The notes under the pieces were generated by a model that made no database searches, was not told the DNA's origin, and was given only the letters and a program-made list of their open reading frames with translations. The translations under genes and the position numbers were made by a program. Of a stretch of DNA of 64,000 nucleotides, positions 1 through 30,680 are shown piece after piece. Each line of letters starts with the position of its first letter. Position 1 is the stretch's first letter. Origin of the DNA: an uncultured Candidatus Berkelbacteria bacterium (GTDB taxonomy: Bacteria; Patescibacteriota; UBA1384; CAILIB01); the NCBI GenBank assembly GCA_903834195.1, contig CAILIB010000029.1, forward strand, positions 7,715-71,714, written 5' to 3'.

Positions 1-264
1 AAGCTTTTGGCGAATTCTGAACTAATTGAGTCACCGAGGAAGAATTCCTATGCCGAATAACAAGAAATGTGGCCGTTATTACGGACACAACTACTACTGA
101 AACTGAAATTGCGATTAATACCCGACGCATATGATGTTAGTTTGGCAGAAAGTCCTTGAAAATAAAAAGGAACTCGAGAGCATTGTCAGATTGGCTGTTT
201 TCAGCTATTGTACATCAGTACCGCAGTGACGGAGAGACCCGTCCTAATTTTATAGCGCTCTTTT

Positions 265-3147: not shown

Positions 3148-4032
3148 ATGAATGGTATGAAAAAGATCAAAAAAATTGTCATTCCAGTAGCTGGTTACGG
3201 AACCCGCTTTTTGCCGTTTACCAAGTCCATCCCTAAAGAGATGCTTCCGATCGTTGATCGTCCTGTTATTCAGTACATCGTTGAAGAAGCAGTGGAAGCT
3301 GGCATCGAAGAAGTTATCTTGATTACTGGGTATAGCAAGCGTGCAATTGAAGATTATTTTGATTACAACGTAGAACTTGAATACCTCCTCGAGAAGAAGG
3401 GTAAATTAGAACAAAAGAAATTGATTCGCGATATTTCTGATATCGCCAAGTTTGTGTACGTGCGCCAAAAAGAAATGCGCGGACATGGCCATGCAGTTCT
3501 TCAAGCCAAAGAAGTTGTTGGTGATGAGCCTTTTGTTGTGATGTGGGGAGATGATATGTACCGTGGTAAACCATCAAAACTACAACAGCTGATTGCTGCA
3601 TACGAGCGATTAGAAGCTCCTGTACTCTTCACCATGAAACGCGATGCACCTGGAGACGGTGACAAGTACGGGTACATCGAAGTTGCTGAAGACATGGGTA
3701 ATGGATCTTTTCGAATTGCAAACATGGTTGAAAAACCTGGCGACATAAATAAACCTTCCCCATACGCATCCCTTGGGTGCTTTATTTTAACTCCAGATAT
3801 CTTTCCACTCCTTGAAGAACAGCAACCGGGGCTTGGTGGTGAAATTGTTACCCTAGACGCAGTCAATCGACTTGCAAAGCAACGGCCAGTTTACGCGCAG
3901 GAGTGCACTGGACTAAGTTATTATGATTGTGGTGATCGACTTGGATATATGAAAGCAGCAGTTGAATTTGCACTTGATCGCGAAGATATCGGACAAGATT
4001 TCCGCAAATACCTTAAAGATCTTAACGTATAA
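3148..4032 (+). CDS. galU: UTP--glucose-1-phosphate uridylyltransferase
   Basis: Motif VIPVAGYGTRFLPFTKSIPKEMLPIVDRPVIQY and overall GalU-like length. The start could instead be ATG 3157. Confidence 0.9.
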   Translation: MNGMKKIKKIVIPVAGYGTRFLPFTKSIPKEMLPIVDRPVIQYIVEEAVEAGIEEVILITGYSKRAIEDYFDYNVELEYLLEKKGKLEQKKLIRDISDIAKFVYVRQKEMRGHGHAVLQAKEVVGDEPFVVMWGDDMYRGKPSKLQQLIAAYERLEAPVLFTMKRDAPGDGDKYGYIEVAEDMGNGSFRIANMVEKPGDINKPSPYASLGCFILTPDIFPLLEEQQPGLGGEIVTLDAVNRLAKQRPVYAQECTGLSYYDCGDRLGYMKAAVEFALDREDIGQDFRKYLKDLNV

Positions 4033-4036
4033 AACC

Positions 4037-5473
4037 ATGAAGGCAGAGGGGCGCACACAAGTAATAGAGAGGCTACGGATCGTAGGATCACTTGGTGCGC
4101 TTGCGCTATTTGGTTTCCTTGCAACTGGATGTAGTTTACGCGGGAGTAGTTCAGTAACTACTTCAAGTGGGCCATACCAAGTTCGTGTATGGCGTGTAGA
4201 CCAAGATGTTGACCCACTCAAATCATCAATTAGTAATTTCAATTCTGATAACCAAGGAATTGCACAGGTTACGTACGTAAAAAAGAGTTCTCAAGGATAC
4301 GAACTCTCTGCACTAAAATCATTAGCTGCTCGTACTGGTCCAGATATTTGGAGCATTCCAAACACCTGGCTCGGAGATCATGTTGCCCGAATTCAACCTC
4401 TTCCAGATACATACTTCAATAACCTTGAGTCAACCGCTACCCTCGGAGCAGTTGATGCAGTAAAGAAACTGTATCCTGCAGGTATTGCTGAACAACTTAT
4501 TAGCACAGATGGAAAATCTGTACTTGGTGCTCCAGGTGGTGTTGATGTACTCAAGCTGTACTACAACCAAGACATCTTCGATTCTGCAATAAATGAGTTC
4601 AAGCTATCACTCGGAGATAATTTTGACGATAGTGTTTTCACCCCTGTTCGCCAATTATTGAGCAACCCACCAGACACTTGGAGTACACTAGATAACCAAG
4701 TAAAATACCTGACTAAGCGAAGTGGTAACACCATTATCCGCAGCGCTATTGCAATGGGCACTGCTGATAACGTACCTGCAGGTGAAGAAACATTACAGCT
4801 TCTTATGATGCAGGATGGTACCCGTATCGTGAGTAGCGATCGTACACGTGCAATGTTCCACATCACAACATCAACATCTTCATTATCGACCACCCGACCA
4901 GGAGCTAACGCACTTAATTACTTCGCCTCATTTTCCAATCCAAACAAACCTACGTATTCTTGGAACCCTTCAATGCCCCAGGCTCTGGATGCATTTGCTC
5001 AGGGTAAAGTTGCAATGATAATCGGCTTCTCAGATGTTGGTGATACATTGAAAATTAAATATCCTAATTTTCACTTTGATACTGCACCAGTACCTCAATT
5101 AACACTTAATGGCCTCCAAAAAGACGTTAACCTGATCAAGTTTGATGTCGAAACAGTTACTAAAAGCGCGGATAGTTATGAAGCATCGTGGCGCTTTATG
5201 CAGCGCTATACGCAACCAGACGTTATGAACGATGTTGCAAATGTACAAGGTCGTCAAACACCATACCTTGCTGACCTCACTACTCGCTCCGACAGCTTCC
5301 CGCAGAAGCAGATTCTAAGCGGACAAGCTGTATTTGAGAAAAATCGTGATCAATTTGATGGTGCGTTTCGTCAAATGATTGTTGACGTAAGCCAGAACGG
5401 TATTCCAGTTGATCAGTCACTCGATAACGCGGCAGAAGTTGTGAATGGACTATTAGCAACTCCAGACGAGTAA
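4037..5473 (+). CDS. Extracellular solute-binding (ABC-type, sugar-binding-like) lipoprotein
   Basis: Start moved to ATG 4037 to avoid overlapping galU. The resulting N-terminus has a lipobox (LATGC). Size and composition fit a family-1 SBP. Confidence 0.65.
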   Translation: MKAEGRTQVIERLRIVGSLGALALFGFLATGCSLRGSSSVTTSSGPYQVRVWRVDQDVDPLKSSISNFNSDNQGIAQVTYVKKSSQGYELSALKSLAARTGPDIWSIPNTWLGDHVARIQPLPDTYFNNLESTATLGAVDAVKKLYPAGIAEQLISTDGKSVLGAPGGVDVLKLYYNQDIFDSAINEFKLSLGDNFDDSVFTPVRQLLSNPPDTWSTLDNQVKYLTKRSGNTIIRSAIAMGTADNVPAGEETLQLLMMQDGTRIVSSDRTRAMFHITTSTSSLSTTRPGANALNYFASFSNPNKPTYSWNPSMPQALDAFAQGKVAMIIGFSDVGDTLKIKYPNFHFDTAPVPQLTLNGLQKDVNLIKFDVETVTKSADSYEASWRFMQRYTQPDVMNDVANVQGRQTPYLADLTTRSDSFPQKQILSGQAVFEKNRDQFDGAFRQMIVDVSQNGIPVDQSLDNAAEVVNGLLATPDE

Positions 5474-5811: not shown

Positions 5812-6672
5812 ATGGCTACTACATTTCTCGGAAAACCAGTTCCTACAAAAACTCCGGCACACAAACCGAAGAGGAAAAAAGCTCGACACCGCTGGGAAGT
5901 ACTTCTCGTTTTACCAGTTGTTTTTTGCGGTGGCTTACTTGCATTACAAAAAACTACATTGGATTCGAGTGTTGCTGAACGATCAACTGGTGCCGCTCTA
6001 TCCCGAGCACTGAATCAACAACCAGAAAATAGCGCCTCACCAACAAATACACTGGAAAGTATTACACTTGCTCAACAACAACCTCAGACAGGTAGTGGTG
6101 GAACTGGAACAAATGGAACTACAACTCAATCAGGAACCAAAGCAACTACTCCCGCTACCACAACTCAAGTAGACGGCACCACATACTGCAGCCCAGCCAA
6201 AGTTAAGCCCGTGTTCTTTGATGCAAATAATAACCTCATTTCAATCTTTCCTATTATCCCAAATGGGGTACGTGGACTTGATTCTTCAGGAAACCTATCT
6301 CCTACGGTCTGCAGCCCCGCCTATTGGGGACGCGATGTTCTCTATTTCTTCGTATACAAAGGTCTGGCAGTGCTGAACTGGTTTGCTGAAGCATTAGCGA
6401 TTATCTTAACACTCTATGCAGGCATCCTCTACATGACCGGATTTTACAATGAAGGCAACGTTAAGACAGCCAAGACCATGCTCATTGGTGTGTACACTGG
6501 CCTCGCAATTGTTCTCCTTGCTAAAACTATTGTGTATAGCGGAATAAATTTGGCGGTTAAGAATGATCCAAGTACTGTAATTAAGAGTTCGGCACCAATT
6601 CCTGGATTAGATAGTAGTAGCGGCACCTCGGGTAGCGGAACAACAACTGGTACAGGTACAGGAGGAAAATGA
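5812..6672 (+). CDS. Membrane protein with Thr/Gln/Gly-rich extracellular region and C-terminal pilin-like two-TM module
   Basis: N-terminal TM anchor, low-complexity T/Q/G stretch, two Cys-containing segments. The C-terminal module is TM - GFYNEGNVKTAKT - TM. Confidence 0.6.
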   Translation: MATTFLGKPVPTKTPAHKPKRKKARHRWEVLLVLPVVFCGGLLALQKTTLDSSVAERSTGAALSRALNQQPENSASPTNTLESITLAQQQPQTGSGGTGTNGTTTQSGTKATTPATTTQVDGTTYCSPAKVKPVFFDANNNLISIFPIIPNGVRGLDSSGNLSPTVCSPAYWGRDVLYFFVYKGLAVLNWFAEALAIILTLYAGILYMTGFYNEGNVKTAKTMLIGVYTGLAIVLLAKTIVYSGINLAVKNDPSTVIKSSAPIPGLDSSSGTSGSGTTTGTGTGGK

Positions 6673-7055
6673 TTCGACGCATCAACCAACTCTTACTCCT
6701 ACTTGCACTCACACTCGCAGCTCATCCACTTTCTGCACGAGCTGATTTAATTCCACCAATTGAGAGCAATCGCATTTCTCAGCGACAACCCTCAACAACT
6801 CTCAATGGAACGTTCGACTGGCTTCAGGGACGGGTTAGTTCAGTCATCTTTTTACTTCTTGGGGGAATGGCTGTGATCTATCTAATTTGGTCTGGTATAC
6901 AGTACATTACTGCGGCTGGAAACGCCGAACAAACCAAGAAAGCCCGTGAATCAATCATTCACATCGTACTCGGAATAATCCTTCTCGTTTCAACGTATTA
7001 CATCCTTCGCATACTCATTGGTATACCTTCCCTTTTCGTTCCAGGGAGCTCATAA
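6669..7055 (+). CDS. VirB2/TrbC-like pilin family protein (paralog 3)
   Basis: Signal peptide (..HPLSARA), then TM - GIQYITAAGNAEQTKKARESI - TM. ATGA overlap with the upstream gene. Confidence 0.7.
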   Translation: MIRRINQLLLLLALTLAAHPLSARADLIPPIESNRISQRQPSTTLNGTFDWLQGRVSSVIFLLLGGMAVIYLIWSGIQYITAAGNAEQTKKARESIIHIVLGIILLVSTYYILRILIGIPSLFVPGSS

Positions 7056-7124
7056 CGGAGAATTAATTTGACAGGTGAAAATATAGACCAGTACAATAGA
7101 AACAACACATCTCTAAGGAGGATA

Positions 7125-7535
7125 ATGAAAAAACTTATTTACGCATACGTAATGGCAAGTACAGCAGTAGCTGGCTTTTTAGCTGCCCCTGCATTTGCAG
7201 CATCAAATGACCCAGGTGCCATTCAGCCAAGTGGTAGCATCGACTCAAGTGCATCAGCCTTTACTTGGGCTAGCATCAAGACTCTCGCAGGAAGCGTGAT
7301 TACAATCATGCTCTTCATTGCAGGTTTCGTCGCAGTGGCATACCTAGTGTACAACGGTATACAATACATCACATCGGCTGGTAACGCTGATAAGGTGAAG
7401 GCAGCGCGCGCAGGTATCATTAATGCAGTTATCGGTATTGCTGTTATCTCCGCTGCGTACTTTATCGTCAACTTTGCAATCGGTATTGGAAAAGGAGCGA
7501 GCCAGATCGTTAACTCTCCAACCACTATTAAATAG
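7125..7535 (+). CDS. VirB2/TrbC-like pilin family protein (paralog 4)
   Basis: AAGGAGG lies upstream of ATG 7125. Signal peptide ..APAFA, then TM - GIQYITSAGNADKVKAARAGI - TM. Confidence 0.75.
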   Translation: MKKLIYAYVMASTAVAGFLAAPAFAASNDPGAIQPSGSIDSSASAFTWASIKTLAGSVITIMLFIAGFVAVAYLVYNGIQYITSAGNADKVKAARAGIINAVIGIAVISAAYFIVNFAIGIGKGASQIVNSPTTIK

Positions 7536-27568: not shown

Positions 27569-27597
27569 TTGACAAATCGTATAAATGTGTGTATATT
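27569..27597 (+). promoter_or_regulatory. Consensus sigma70-type promoter with no annotated gene downstream
   Basis: TTGACA (27569-74) - 17 nt - TATATT (27592-97). Confidence 0.7.
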
Positions 27598-27603
27598 GTC
27601 GAG

Positions 27604-27885
27604 ACTCAAGGAGGTCACAACATGGGTTTCTAGCACAACTAGAATCGGCGTTCGGCGCTCGAGATAGGTACAACCCTTCTCCAGCGCCCTCGTAAACCAT
27701 GATCTGCACCACCGAATGAGAAAAGCAAAAGATACCACACAAATAGGAGGTGTGTTATGAGCTACAACTAAAACCGCGCTAAGCGCATAAACAAATCAGG
27801 ACTAATGTCCGGATCAAAAAAAGAAGCCATTTAGGCACCTTGGGACCCATAGCACGCAACGAAGCAGCTAGGGTCCCTTTTATTT
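27604..27885 (+). ncRNA. Candidate ~280-nt small RNA / mini-ORF transcript (unknown family)
   Basis: Bounded by the consensus promoter above and the terminator GGGACCC(27842-48)...GGGTCCC(27871-77)+TTTTATTT. Internal hairpins at 27630-42, 27654-88, 27776-86 and 27796-813. Two SD-led mini-ORFs (27622-33 MGF*, 27757-71 MSYN*). Confidence 0.5.
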
Positions 27886-28651
27886 ACTTCTCTTTTCTCA
27901 ACTTTGCCCCATCCCACGCCAGTGAAAAAATCTGCGCAACTGTATTGGCAATTTCTGGGCTTTGAATCAGTACACCAAAGTGGTTTTTATTTGTGTAATT
28001 GAAAAACTTAATTCCCCAATCTGTGAACACTGTTAATGAACCTTCAAGAAGTAGCTCCCCCGGCAAAAAGTGAATTGCCTCACGGAGCTCTTTTTTATTT
28101 TGAGCTTCAGTAAGCATTTCCTTGCTTACATAAATAACCTTAGAGTGGATTCCTCGTTCTACTCGAGTATTAACCGTCTGTTTACGTTGCTGGGGAAACG
28201 TTTCTACCACAATATCCAAAGGAGAAATGGTAAGCATCTCAGTATCAGAGGTCATCTGATCACTGCCGTAGTTCTCAAGCTCAACCAACCCATCTTTACC
28301 CTCAAAGAACCGAACTACGGGCTTATCAGAGCGAAAATTGTACATCGCCTCAAGCTGGGTGATATTTGCCTTCAGGTCAGAACGATGTGCCTCAAGCTCA
28401 GCAATATGAGTATCAACCAACTGTTCGAGAACTGCTGGGTGCTCGGCACGGAAGTAACTTCGCTTACCTTCAGGTGCTTCTTTCAAAAGACCAAGTTTGG
28501 AGAGACGCTCCAAAATAACGTACACCGTGACCCGCTTAATACCGGTTTTTGTAGCCACATCTTGCACACTAGCTGTACCCAACTGCAAAAGTGCCAAGTA
28601 GGTAGCTGCTTCTTTGTCTGAAAGCCCAAGTTTTTGTAAGAGTTCTTGCAT
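27884..28651 (-). CDS. TrmB-family transcriptional regulator
   Basis: N-terminal wHTH LLQKLGLSDKEAATYLALLQLGTASVQDVA..GIKRVTVYVILERL. The start is set to ATG 28651, which fits the promoter geometry. Confidence 0.8.
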   Translation of the reverse strand: MQELLQKLGLSDKEAATYLALLQLGTASVQDVATKTGIKRVTVYVILERLSKLGLLKEAPEGKRSYFRAEHPAVLEQLVDTHIAELEAHRSDLKANITQLEAMYNFRSDKPVVRFFEGKDGLVELENYGSDQMTSDTEMLTISPLDIVVETFPQQRKQTVNTRVERGIHSKVIYVSKEMLTEAQNKKELREAIHFLPGELLLEGSLTVFTDWGIKFFNYTNKNHFGVLIQSPEIANTVAQIFSLAWDGAKLRKEK

Positions 28652-28657
28652 GAATAC

Positions 28658-28686
28658 AGTATACATAATCCGTATACTTTTATCAA
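28658..28686 (-). promoter_or_regulatory. Promoter of the TrmB gene, leaderless geometry
   Basis: On the minus strand: TTGATA (28686-81) - 17 nt - TATACT (28663-58) - 6 nt - ATG 28651, with no SD. Confidence 0.65.
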
Positions 28687-28757
28687 TAAGTGACAATATT
28701 AAATATACTTTCTAATCTTTAAAGTATAAATAAAATACATTGTAATTATAAAACCTC

Positions 28758-28786
28758 TTGACATAATTCAATTTTGCGGGTATACT
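28758..28786 (+). promoter_or_regulatory. Consensus sigma70-type promoter, divergent from the TrmB gene
   Basis: TTGACA (28758-63) - 17 nt - TATACT (28781-86). Confidence 0.7.
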
Positions 28787-28902
28787 GCCGTTTGTCAGTT
28801 GAAAAGGGAGTGAGTACGCAATGAACCGGCCTAAACAATTATCGGCTTGGCTTGCCTCACCCTTTTCAACAAAAGACGAGCTCATTAAAAACTCGACCAC
28901 CT

Positions 28903-28952
28903 GGAGGCGCTGGCGCTTTTCTAAGTCAGGTTCGATTCCTGCCGCCTCTCCA
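28903..28952 (+). other. tRNA-like minihelix (acceptor stem + T arm + CCA) lacking D and anticodon arms
   Basis: GGAGGCG (28903-09) pairs with CGCCTCT (28943-49). The T-arm-like CAGG-TTCGATT-CCTG is identical in loop and most of the stem to the tRNA-Arg T arm at 311-327. It is followed by CCA (28950-52). Confidence 0.5.
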
Positions 28953-29097
28953 ATCTTCGGCTGTCCGTTCCAGACTGCCCCTCCTTCCAGCTTATAAAAA
29001 TTTCTAAGTTGAAAGGAGGGGTCAGTGATGGAGTCTAAAAGATGCGATGCGACTTGTTCGTAACCCTCTATGTATGACAACTCATACCTGGAGCGTT

Positions 29098-29493
29098 ATG
29101 AACAAAATCGTATCCCTCATTTTCGTCACTGCCTTGGGTTTCAGCCTCATGGGATGCGATAATGCCCCGAAGCTGAACGTGCATCGCCTCGACGGCATCA
29201 CTGCCGCACAGCTTCCGGTCTCCCCCCAGGCCGAAAGCGATGAGCCGCTGGCATCAGGTGCCTTGAAGGGCCTGTACAGCATGGGGGCTGGTATCCCAAA
29301 TACCAAGGAAGTACCCGACCTTCGCGTCCGTCAGGTTACTTCGAATCGAAAGACGCGTTGCGCCGTCGAGATCATTGATAAGGATGGAAACATCCTGATG
29401 CATGAAGTCTACGATAAGCAGTTGGATGGTCAGGAAACCGCTGAGAATGATGCAGTGGAATTCGCCAACCGCTATCGACGGCGTAAAAGGTGA
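29098..29493 (+). CDS. Small lipoprotein, orphan (GC3-rich codon usage)
   Basis: MNKIVSLIFVTALGFSLMGC lipobox. GGAG lies upstream. Codon choice (CTG, GCC, CCG) differs from neighbouring genes. Confidence 0.6.
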   Translation: MNKIVSLIFVTALGFSLMGCDNAPKLNVHRLDGITAAQLPVSPQAESDEPLASGALKGLYSMGAGIPNTKEVPDLRVRQVTSNRKTRCAVEIIDKDGNILMHEVYDKQLDGQETAENDAVEFANRYRRRKR

Positions 29494-29573
29494 CCGTTTT
29501 TCCCTTCAGAGAATTGCTCGTGGCATTCTCTGCTTACCTGAGCTCCTCAACATATTGAGTGGTTCAGCGAGTA

Positions 29574-29767
29574 TGGGTAAAACCAACAAGGGCCGCGGGG
29601 TCCGTATTCCCGCCGAGTATTCTGGATTACTCGAAAACAATCCAGCGTTGGCAGCGCAGATCCGTAAAATCTACGCCGAGTTTCCGGAGTATAGAGGGAA
29701 ACCTCGCCGGGTTCTCACCACCCCGCCAACACCCGGTTCACGCCGGTATCCTTACCTTAAAAAGTAA
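29574..29767 (+). CDS. Small basic hypothetical protein (64 aa)
   Basis: ATG 29574 within track ORF 29402..29767. No recognisable domain. Confidence 0.35.
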
Positions 29768-29916
29768 GCGGAAGTAGACCGGATCTACACCCCCTGAGGC
29801 GGCGAAAGCTGTTCCTCTCTGTCCCCGGGTACCGGGCTGAAGAGTTGGTGAAATCCTAACGAAACAGGGTCAGATGCGCATCAGTACTGATGCAAGATCT
29901 GAAAGGAGGAAAATCG

Positions 29917-30057
29917 ATGCAGATAACAAGTGTCTATATGCCCGGCATTGGGACGCTACGCTTTCTTGATAGAAACGGGGAAACCAGATTCTACAGCAAG
30001 GAAGACCCCCGTTTGTTCTCCCTTCAACTAGATAGTCCAATTATTGGAAGCTCTTGA
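29917..30057 (+). CDS. Small hypothetical protein (46 aa)
   Basis: AAAGGAGGA lies 6 nt upstream of ATG 29917. Below the ORF-track size cutoff. Confidence 0.4.
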   Translation: MQITSVYMPGIGTLRFLDRNGETRFYSKEDPRLFSLQLDSPIIGSS

Positions 30058-30302
30058 GAAGCCCCATGAAAAATTAATGAAAATGAAATTAATAGATTAT
30101 GAAAGCGTATTATTTGCCCACGGACCTGGACAAATACAATAAACTATGCTACTATGTCACAGTCTTACCGTGCCATATCCTTCCATATAAATTTGCGCCT
30201 GAAACGCGCTGGTCGAAAGTAGTATGAGATTGAGGGAAGCATTATCGTAAGCGTTAGCTAACCTATTTTTATTATCTTATACTGCTCGTATATTAAACTC
30301 GT

Positions 30303-30680
30303 ATGAAGAAACTTTACATCGGCAATTTGTCGTACAACACAACTGAAGATACCATCGTTGCCTTTTTGGCATCAGTCCTTCCAGAAGGAACAGACGCTAC
30401 TACGGTTATCACCAAAGTAGAACTGATCCCTGGTGAGACTACTCCTAACAAGGGGTTTGGTTTCGCAGAAATCGCTGACGACGCGATTGCAGAAACAATG
30501 ATCCAACAGCTTGACGGTCAAGAAGTTGACGGTCGCCCACTACGTATTAACGAGGCTCGTCCAAAGACAGATCGTCCACGTACTGGTGGTGGTTACAATG
30601 GCGGCGGCGCAAGTCGTGGCGGTTATAACGGCGGTGGTTCATCATCGTCTTACGGCGGCGGAAATCGTCGTAGCTACTAA
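30303..30680 (+). CDS. RRM-type RNA-binding protein with Gly-rich tail
   Basis: RNP2 LYIGNL, RNP1 KGFGFAEI, C-terminal GGGYNGGG repeats. Confidence 0.9.
   Translation: MKKLYIGNLSYNTTEDTIVAFLASVLPEGTDATTVITKVELIPGETTPNKGFGFAEIADDAIAETMIQQLDGQEVDGRPLRINEARPKTDRPRTGGGYNGGGASRGGYNGGGSSSSYGGGNRRSY

Follow-up and report, generated by a model that had tools for sequence, protein, structure and literature searches.

We analyzed a window of 64,000 nucleotides (nt) from an uncultured Candidatus Berkelbacteria bacterium (contig CAILIB010000029.1, positions 7,715 to 71,714 of the forward strand), in which the gene for a TrmB-family helix-turn-helix regulator lies divergent from a small-protein operon preceded by a structured leader. 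Within this leader is found the element under study, a tRNA-like minihelix of 50 nt in which an acceptor-like stem is stacked on a T arm. The features of the locus, numbered from the first letter of the window, are as follows.

27884..28651, minus strand: TrmB-family helix-turn-helix regulator (Pfam PF01978, E = 6e-15; homologs P0001-P0039), the marker gene of the cluster
28758..28786, plus strand: sigma-70-type promoter TTGACA-17-TATACT, divergent from TrmB, with 11/12 positions as in the consensus
28799..28869, plus strand: hairpin 1, a 5'-terminal, bulged, 70-nt hairpin in which 28799-28814 pairs with 28856-28869
28903..28952, plus strand: tRNA-like minihelix, with acceptor strands at 28903-09 and 28943-49, linker at 28910-25, T arm at 28926-42 and CCA at 28950-52
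28968..29034, plus strand: hairpin 2, in which CCCCUCCUUCCAG pairs with UUGAAAGGAGGGG (minimum free energy, MFE, -34.8 kcal/mol; z = -6.2)
29028..29063, plus strand: 11-codon mini open reading frame (mini-ORF) MESKRCDATCS*, 8 nt past the Shine-Dalgarno (SD) sequence of hairpin 2 and overlapping the 5' arm of hairpin 3
29046..29114, plus strand: hairpin 3 (MFE -34.5 kcal/mol, z = -9.6, 0/200 shuffles)
29098..29493, plus strand: lipoprotein gene with a signal peptide and an LMGC lipobox, the first gene of the operon
29573..29767, plus strand: 64-amino-acid (aa) protein with a C-terminal PPxPGSRRxP, a conserved member of the cluster
29917..30057, plus strand: 46-aa ORF with a strong SD, GAAAGGAGG

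The leader and its minihelix

The promoter, whose hexamers TTGACA (28758-63) and TATACT (28781-86) are separated by a 17-nt spacer, is the top promoter-like site in 28300-30400, and transcription from it should start near 28793. Both this promoter and the long bulged hairpin downstream had been described in the original prediction, and both were found in place and recur in relatives (see below). The leader is ~305 nt long, heavily folded and located 5' of the small-protein operon; G+C content rises from 0.29-0.35 (28600-28899) to 0.50-0.585 (28800-29899). Hairpin 1 has an MFE of -26.9 kcal/mol (z = -3.4), only 1/200 shuffles folding as well, and displays a purine-rich 5' arm and an apex made of CCGGCC, a 12-nt A/U loop and GGC-UU-GG.

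Hairpins 2 and 3 are statistically far stronger than hairpin 1 (z of -6.2 and -9.6 vs -3.4). In the predicted fold, an anti-SD arm of hairpin 2 (CCCCUCCUU) sequesters the strong SD AAGGAGGGG, and the GGAG and AUG (29098) of the lipoprotein gene lie buried in hairpin 3; as modelled, hairpin 2, the mini-ORF and hairpin 3 together have the look of a translational gate with two steps. The peptide of the mini-ORF (29028-29063) is not conserved in the related loci L005 or L159.

Regarding the minihelix itself, the predicted 7-bp acceptor-like stem and T arm were both present. GGAGGCG (28903-09) and CGCCTCT (28943-49) pair at 7/7 positions, including a terminal G1.U72 and an A3-U70 pair, and the T arm TCAGG-TTCGATT-CCTGC (28926-42) forms 4/5 stem pairs, the first being a U.C mismatch, closed by the loop UUCGAUU, which is fully canonical (GGUUCGAUUCC). 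This is the tRNA arrangement of a 7-bp acceptor stacked on a 5-bp T stem with a UUCRANY loop, and the T arm is indeed, as had been claimed, very similar to that of tRNA-Arg(GCG) at 265-340, the only tRNA of the window (16/17 identical). The absence of D and anticodon arms was likewise borne out, since just 16 nt (CUGGCGCUUUUCUAAG) lie between the 5' acceptor strand and the T stem, forming at most a weak 4-bp stem. The claim that the element ends in CCA holds literally at 28950-52, but not in tRNA register: CCA directly abuts the seventh acceptor pair (1:72), there is no discriminator, and the end is one position off; with C73 read as the discriminator, the tail becomes CAA.

Features specific to tmRNA (transfer-messenger RNA) are lacking as well. 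The minihelix has A3-U70 in place of the alanine identity pair G3:U70, its 3' end CGCCUCU-CCA is without the A73 of N-A73-CCA, and it has neither the D-loop analog nor the P2 helix that form the SmpB-binding side. When 28650-29150 (501 nt) was searched at E <= 10, the RF00023 covariance model did not match the minihelix, nor did Rfam return any hit; ARAGORN and Rfam at gathering thresholds, scans that the original prediction had suggested, yielded only tRNA-Arg 265-340 in the window and nothing at the minihelix. As it has no anticodon or D arm, no G3:U70, A73 or P2, and no model match, we filed the element as neither a tRNA nor a tmRNA. Moreover, the loss of G3:U70, the discriminator and the D-analog/P2 region makes charging improbable, and the minihelix is, judging from its sequence, probably not aminoacylated. 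A permuted (two-piece) tmRNA was considered and rejected: the T arm follows the 5' acceptor strand after just 16 nt, nothing in 28787-98, ahead of hairpin 1, is complementary, and ARAGORN calls no tmRNA. Two inverted repeats involving the minihelix (I4, with the TrmB coding sequence, and I14, with the upstream RNA) were judged to be at noise level among 17 such pairs.

Taken alone, the minihelix is just weakly above chance; its significance comes from the recurrence of comparable elements in related loci.

TLD-only RNAs and leader conservation in related TrmB loci

We compared the neighbourhoods of TrmB homologs (the closest ones solely from metagenomes and metagenome-assembled genomes, MAGs), ~89 loci and 0.48 Mb in all, and scanned them for canonical T arms outside real tRNAs. 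Three loci were found to contain four RNAs consisting of a tmRNA-type tRNA-like domain (TLD) only:

L092 5080-5160: TLD-only RNA L092a, 81 nt (RF00023, 28.5 bits)
L092 5581-5661: TLD-only RNA L092b, 81 nt (RF00023, 74.6 bits)
L160 2582-2665: TLD-only RNA, 84 nt (RF00023, 51.0 bits, above gathering)
L079 4928-4860, minus strand: TLD-only RNA, 69 nt (RF00023, 34.8 bits)

All four have G3.U70, A73 and CCA, and a short capped stem stands in place of the messenger part of tmRNA, within linkers of 34-49 nt; none of them was called by ARAGORN. The two TLDs of L092 are 500 nt apart, and the contigs are metagenomic and Patescibacteria-like. In L092 the order of hairpin 1, TLD, small hairpin, anti-SD/SD hairpin and ORF mirrors that of the window, and in L160 the TLD is located after the PPxPGSRRxP gene, linking it to the family of the 64-aa protein of the window.

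More reduced elements were also detected. In L006 (TrmB 50% identical) the sole canonical T-arm hairpin in 10.8 kb, GAAGG-UUCGACU-CCUUC, lies 54 nt past hairpin 1; a possible acceptor with 6/7 pairs and G3.U70 starts 18 nt past that hairpin (33 nt in the window), giving an element at 6468-6526, although the MFE fold instead extends an internal 12-bp hairpin. Loci L122, L123 and L126 contain, near 4886-4930, a reduced minihelix with a 7-bp acceptor, a 9-10-nt linker and a T arm, but no CCA. The position of the window minihelix past hairpin 1 agrees with those in L006 and L092.

At the sequence level, the window stem GGAGGCG/CGCCUCU is 12/14 identical to the tmRNA-type stem GGGGGCG/CGCCUCC-A-CCA, from which it differs by G3>A and C72>U, besides the loss of A73; compared with L079 (GGGGCCG/CGGCUCC), pair 5:68 is swapped from C-G to G-C with pairing preserved. 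A covariance model (R1) was built from the elements of the relatives only, with the window excluded; linkers were trimmed because MAFFT put the 5' acceptor strands of the TLDs in the wrong place. In a search of the 64 kb with this model the window minihelix ranks first (18.3 bits, E ~0.1), and no further elements were found among the 89 TrmB loci.

The leader is also conserved in its architecture. The same promoter with similar flanks (TTGACATAATT...TATACTGCCG/GCAG) heads the equivalent RNA in L002, L005 and L159; that of L006 has TTGACA and the 17-nt spacer too, but its -10 hexamer is TATAAT. In these four loci a single long hairpin follows the consensus promoter within 10-21 nt. Its basal stems differ in sequence yet remain paired, with purine-rich 5' arms (GUUGAAAAGGG, GGUAAGAGAG, GUUAGGAAGUG and UUGAGAGAG), and its apex is recognisably alike, with CCGGCC, an 11-14-nt A/U loop and GGC-NN-GG; homology was judged from individual folds, as the MAFFT alignment of hairpin 1 was not structural. 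Equivalent hairpins reach z = -4.7 in L092 and z = -7.8 in the L122 group, and hairpins of the CCUCC / AAGGAGG anti-SD/SD type, like hairpin 2, were found in L005, L159, L008 and L092.

The small genes of the operon accompany TrmB as well. The lipoprotein (29098-29493) matches L002 3834-4268 by tblastn, with 34% identity over 135 aa (E = 8e-13); this locus (TrmB 61% identical) also has near-identical promoter flanks, a long hairpin of other sequence and an unrelated 94-aa ORF. Homologs of the 64-aa protein lie at L160 2315-2506 (E = 2e-6; TrmB 49% identical) and L161 2827-3018 (E = 8e-7; TrmB 44% identical), the two matching each other at 3e-10. No Pfam, PHROG or NCBIfam family was found for the lipoprotein, and no family in the Pfam scan for the 64-aa protein (29573-29767). 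The 46-aa ORF, probably the last gene of the operon, has no homolog among the related TrmB loci. From these sequence comparisons, TrmB, the promoter and leader, the lipoprotein and the 64-aa protein form a cluster that recurs in several Patescibacteria lineages, its location being variable (near DnaB, AAA_5 or GroES in L005, L159 and L006).

The genes neighbouring the cluster in the window are ordinary chromosomal ones (a methyltransferase, a creatininase-family protein, a major facilitator superfamily transporter, a GGDEF-EAL protein, a diacylglycerol kinase and a sulfatase), and the TrmB cluster is chromosomal, not phage-borne. For the nearby MgsA/RarA protein, the best named matches are in Candidatus Spechtbacteria, Doudnabacteria and 'Patescibacteria group', which places the window in Patescibacteria. 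A phage origin was rejected as no TrmB relative was found in IMG/VR and PHROG gave no meaningful matches. Directly downstream of the operon, at 30303-30680 (plus strand), lies a gene for an RNA-binding protein with an RRM domain (Pfam RRM_1) and a glycine-rich tail.

A second strong promoter (27569-97, plus strand; TTGACA 27569-74, 17-nt spacer, TATATT 27592-97) faces the 3' end of TrmB in convergent orientation. The RNA starting from it carries an SD, AAGGAGGU (27608-15), and a 3-codon ORF, AUG GGU UUC UAG (27622-33), after which come a further SD (with MSYN*), G+C-rich sequence and, at 27842-85, a terminator made of GGGACCC...GGGUCCC and UUUUAUUU, the whole element spanning 27569-27885. The same arrangement was observed on the minus strand of L006, from ~6215 to 5790, with the SD GGAGGUG and AUG GGU GGC UAA. 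Given this second promoted RNA in the window and in L006, TrmB is therefore flanked by two conserved, strongly promoted RNAs.

Other RNAs were noticed beside the TrmB homologs. In L005 (~4857-4320, minus strand) and L159 (~2150-1660, minus strand) the promoter and hairpin 1 lead into a ~500-nt, ORF-free, G+C-rich RNA with a clear intrinsic terminator, no tRNA-like element and no Rfam match, which may be an undescribed structured RNA; the motif GGCUCCAUGA in both loci was considered as a decayed TLD end and rejected because a long-range helix joins it to a remote GGAGCC. The type III hammerhead ribozyme model gave full-length matches at L006 7162-7225 (29.3 bits) and at 5594-5654 of L083 and L084 (34.4 and 31.7 bits), all below the Rfam gathering score of 48.5 and within long non-coding stretches adjoining TrmB homologs; the L006 candidate has a textbook core (CUGAUGAG...CGAAAC) and a GUC cleavage site. 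Rfam matches to GOLLD, ROOL, YrlA or 6S were found neither in the window nor in the related loci.

Origin and possible role of the minihelix

Our preferred reading, which we hold tentatively, is that the minihelix is a reduced TLD module of the tmRNA type that may have been kept in the 5' leader as a tRNA-shaped processing site. As far as its sequence can tell, it is most likely a reduced relative of the mini-tmRNAs rather than a leftover integration site; among the options listed in the original prediction, that of a tmRNA-style mimic thus pointed in the right direction, true TLD-only RNAs being present in related TrmB clusters. The module retains the coaxial acceptor/T-arm stack and the canonical T loop and has lost G3:U70, the discriminator and the D-analog/P2 region. 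An acceptor/T-arm minihelix is a sufficient substrate for bacterial RNase P and the CCA-adding enzyme, and we propose a processing site because the retained stack is the minimal shape for both.

In such a mechanism, the promoter at 28758-86 would transcribe the ~305-nt folded leader together with the lipoprotein, the 64-aa PPxPGSRRxP protein and the 46-aa ORF. The acceptor/T-arm stack would be recognised by tRNA-processing enzymes, with a putative RNase P cut at 28902/28903 and 3' trimming around 28949-52, and cleavage would release a stable 5' hairpin RNA and leave the mRNA downstream as a molecule of its own, whose translation could then be gated in two steps: hairpin 2 would hide the SD of the mini-ORF, hairpin 3 would hide the SD and AUG of the lipoprotein gene, and translation of the mini-ORF would open hairpin 3.

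Several observations weigh against a retained processing module. Elements of this kind occur in just ~6 distinct loci of the ~89, and strict orthology is not established because those of L160 and L079 are at other positions of the cluster. The R1 score of the minihelix (E ~0.1) is no better than that of a match to part of tRNA-Arg, and the pairing statistics of R1 are circular, since the elements were selected for pairing. The remaining ones bear on the two rivals taken up next.

The main rival to the processing-site reading shares its origin: the element would be the decaying relic of a TLD-only mini-tmRNA gene once present in the cluster, transcribed within the leader and under no selection. 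We regard this as somewhat unlikely. It is favoured by the disappearance of the alanine identity pair, the discriminator and the P2/D-analog region, by the lack of Rfam or ARAGORN matches, by a fold of the minihelix region that is not unusually stable (z = -0.5 and +0.4 vs shuffles) and by the closest relatives L002, L005 and L159, whose equivalent RNA has lost the tRNA-like element altogether; in addition, L126 and L122 differ by two stem mismatches, which suggests drift in the L122-type lineage. On the other hand, the acceptor is still paired at 7/7 positions, the 5:68 swap relative to L079 is compensated and the T loop is perfectly canonical, features that a neutral copy in a lineage with TrmB at 46-61% identity would be expected to have shed.

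A chance resemblance, in which a T-loop-like hairpin happened to lie beside a complementary heptamer in a G+C-rich structured leader unrelated to TLDs, is improbable, even though 14% of 300 dinucleotide shuffles of the window yield a canonical T-arm hairpin that has, at most 60 nt away, an acceptor partner pairing 7/7, the model E value is only ~0.1 and the MFE fold of the 50-mer favours a competing register that pairs the CC of 'CCA'. What speaks against it is that the motif sits in exactly the transcript that bears T-arm or TLD elements in L006, L092, L079, L160 and the L122-type loci, that its stem is 12/14 identical to a tmRNA-type acceptor stem, and that TLD-only RNAs are enriched about ten-fold in the 0.48 Mb of TrmB loci vs one tmRNA per ~1-Mb genome.

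Could the element instead be an active tmRNA-like RNA, a processed minihelix acting in trans on ribosome rescue (e.g. by titrating SmpB) or one that is still aminoacylated? The TLD-only RNAs of the relatives do retain all alanine-acceptor features, but the window element has A3-U70 rather than G3:U70, no discriminator and none of the D-analog/P2a region that SmpB contacts in tmRNA; moreover, the window yielded neither a tmRNA gene nor an SmpB gene, SmpB not having been searched systematically. We consider such a role very unlikely.

More remote still is the attachment-site (att) remnant put forward in the original prediction, that is, a duplicated tRNA or tmRNA 3' end left by an integrative element that brought the G+C-rich islet. 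Looking for a parent tRNA by the 3' half, we scanned 185,579 genomes, a set that does not include the source genome, with the 20-mer GGTTCGATTCCTGCCGCCTC; the scan returned tRNA-Sec, tRNA-Gln, tmRNA ends, att copies and coding sequence from unrelated phyla; the 3' half is therefore generic, and that of the tmRNA-type stem (CGCCUCC-ACCA) likewise occurs in other bacteria. Some of these hits are what an att origin would resemble: an extra copy lies 1-6 kb from an intact tmRNA gene in L048 and L067, and orphan copies in Archangium and Actinomycetes are typical island att sites. In addition, the segment from MgsA to the 460-aa/sulfatase pair holds other genes in a close relative. The minihelix, however, has its own 5' acceptor strand, absent from att duplicates, and is inside the variable segment rather than at its border; its 3' half is present as a single copy in 64 kb with no flanking direct repeats, the genes examined from 18.3 to 36.2 kb include no integrase, and the TrmB cluster is absent from viral contigs. 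As to the islet, the rise in G+C after the element is real, but the stretch is not foreign: its genes for the lipoprotein (29098-29493) and the 64-aa protein (29573-29767) are TrmB-linked even in distant relatives (TrmB 44-61% identical), and since the leader and the small genes travel with TrmB, we do not regard it as a fresh insertion.

The extra tmRNA 3' copies are at L048 1015-1034 (tmRNA at 6821-7184) and L067 4806-4825 (tmRNA at 3408-3768), in MAGs of Acidobacteriota and Gaiellaceae, and are att duplicates of the sort typical of genomic islands. An odd tRNA-like sequence, GGAGGCGCUGGGCGUGGCGCCC...CGCAGGUUCGAUUCCUGCCGCCUCCUCCA, was seen at L050 ~18-110 (minus strand) in a Faecousia sp. 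MAG; it shares the first 11 nt and the 3' half of the window element, its middle part is aberrant and ARAGORN makes no call there.

Finally, a small protein is scarcely credible: the 58-codon ORF pointed out earlier (28821..28997) exists, as do a 51-codon and an antisense 122-codon ORF, but none has a homolog by tblastn in any related TrmB locus, where the true genes of the operon are found and where L002 has an unrelated 94-aa ORF at this place, and the 58-codon ORF has no Pfam match, no SD before 28821 and runs through three conserved RNA structures.

Beyond the processing-site reading of the minihelix, we put forward, as a wider and rather doubtful proposal, that TrmB is the centre of an RNA-rich, previously undescribed Patescibacteria cluster. 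Two strongly promoted structured RNAs would flank the regulator, one of them carrying, across lineages, TLD-only mini-tmRNAs (sometimes two), reduced minihelices and candidate hammerheads together with tiny conserved proteins; the tRNA-like modules would be functional, cut out by tRNA enzymes, and would then act on SmpB or the ribosome or control the downstream small proteins, the window element being a non-chargeable, specialised variant.

This TrmB-linked RNA cluster is more interesting than the reduced element itself. Should the minihelix undergo processing, bacteria would offer a case of 'punctuation' within an mRNA leader by a tmRNA-derived element; should it be a relic, the loci would document the decay of such RNAs, passing from intact TLDs through reduced T-arm elements to no element at all. 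Either way, the cluster offers a concrete entry point to the role of tag-less tmRNAs in bacteria.

Comparison with known systems

Patescibacteria have minimal genomes and unusual translation machinery, and several known RNA systems resemble the window element in part. YrlA Y RNA-like molecules combine a long stem with a tRNA-like module, and the leader is similarly a non-coding RNA that joins a long stem with an acceptor/T-arm mimic. It has no Rfam match, however, its hairpin is a separate 5' domain instead of being formed from the two ends of the RNA, and no Ro (Rsr) gene was found among the annotated neighbours. The 3'-end duplicates at att sites share with the element the same 20-nt T-loop/acceptor 3' sequence, found beside tmRNA genes in other phyla; unlike it, they have no 5' acceptor strand and mark island borders with an integrase nearby, whereas the window has a complete helix in a conserved leader.

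tRNA-like processing modules are known from mascRNA at the MALAT1 3' end, from mitochondrial tRNA punctuation and from RNase P sites in bacterial polycistronic mRNAs. By analogy with them, the minihelix is a tRNA-shaped element within a longer transcript that could recruit RNase P and 3'-end enzymes, although these examples involve full or nearly full cloverleaves or unrelated structures and cleavage in the window is a proposal only. To our knowledge, none of them is tmRNA-derived or known from Patescibacteria.

The closest parallel is found in the tmRNAs that lack a coding sequence (CDS). Records of tmRNAs that lack the messenger half come almost exclusively from organelles and a single phage: CDS-less forms are described in mitochondria (jakobid), in two Mallomonadaceae plastids and in mycobacteriophage DS6A (PMC11915505, PMC4131195). 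Whether chargeable or not, a molecule like the DS6A TLD-only RNA is noted to be a strong inhibitor of tmRNA, perhaps through titration of SmpB (PMC4131195). Among named bacterial phyla, 'Standard NoCDS' entries are listed for Patescibacteria only (3 in 6765 genomes; PMC11915505, Supplementary Table 2), and the 2025 tmRNA database does not discuss the context of these three forms (PMC11915505). In the literature we found no mention of a link with TrmB or of reduced derivatives within mRNA leaders, and what the present locus adds are TLD-only RNAs and reduced derivatives in a recurring cluster that also comprises a dedicated regulator, conserved small proteins and perhaps ribozymes. The window element differs from the CDS-less tmRNAs in that it is without G3:U70, A73 and the D-analog/P2 stub, has no RF00023 match at E <= 10, is only 50 nt long, and is found in an mRNA leader, not as a separate gene. 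It resembles them in stacking an acceptor on a T arm while having neither an anticodon arm nor a tag reading frame, and it is short, as are the known forms with ~65-85 nt; it also belongs to the same phylum, with bona fide cases in the TrmB clusters of L092, L160 and L079.

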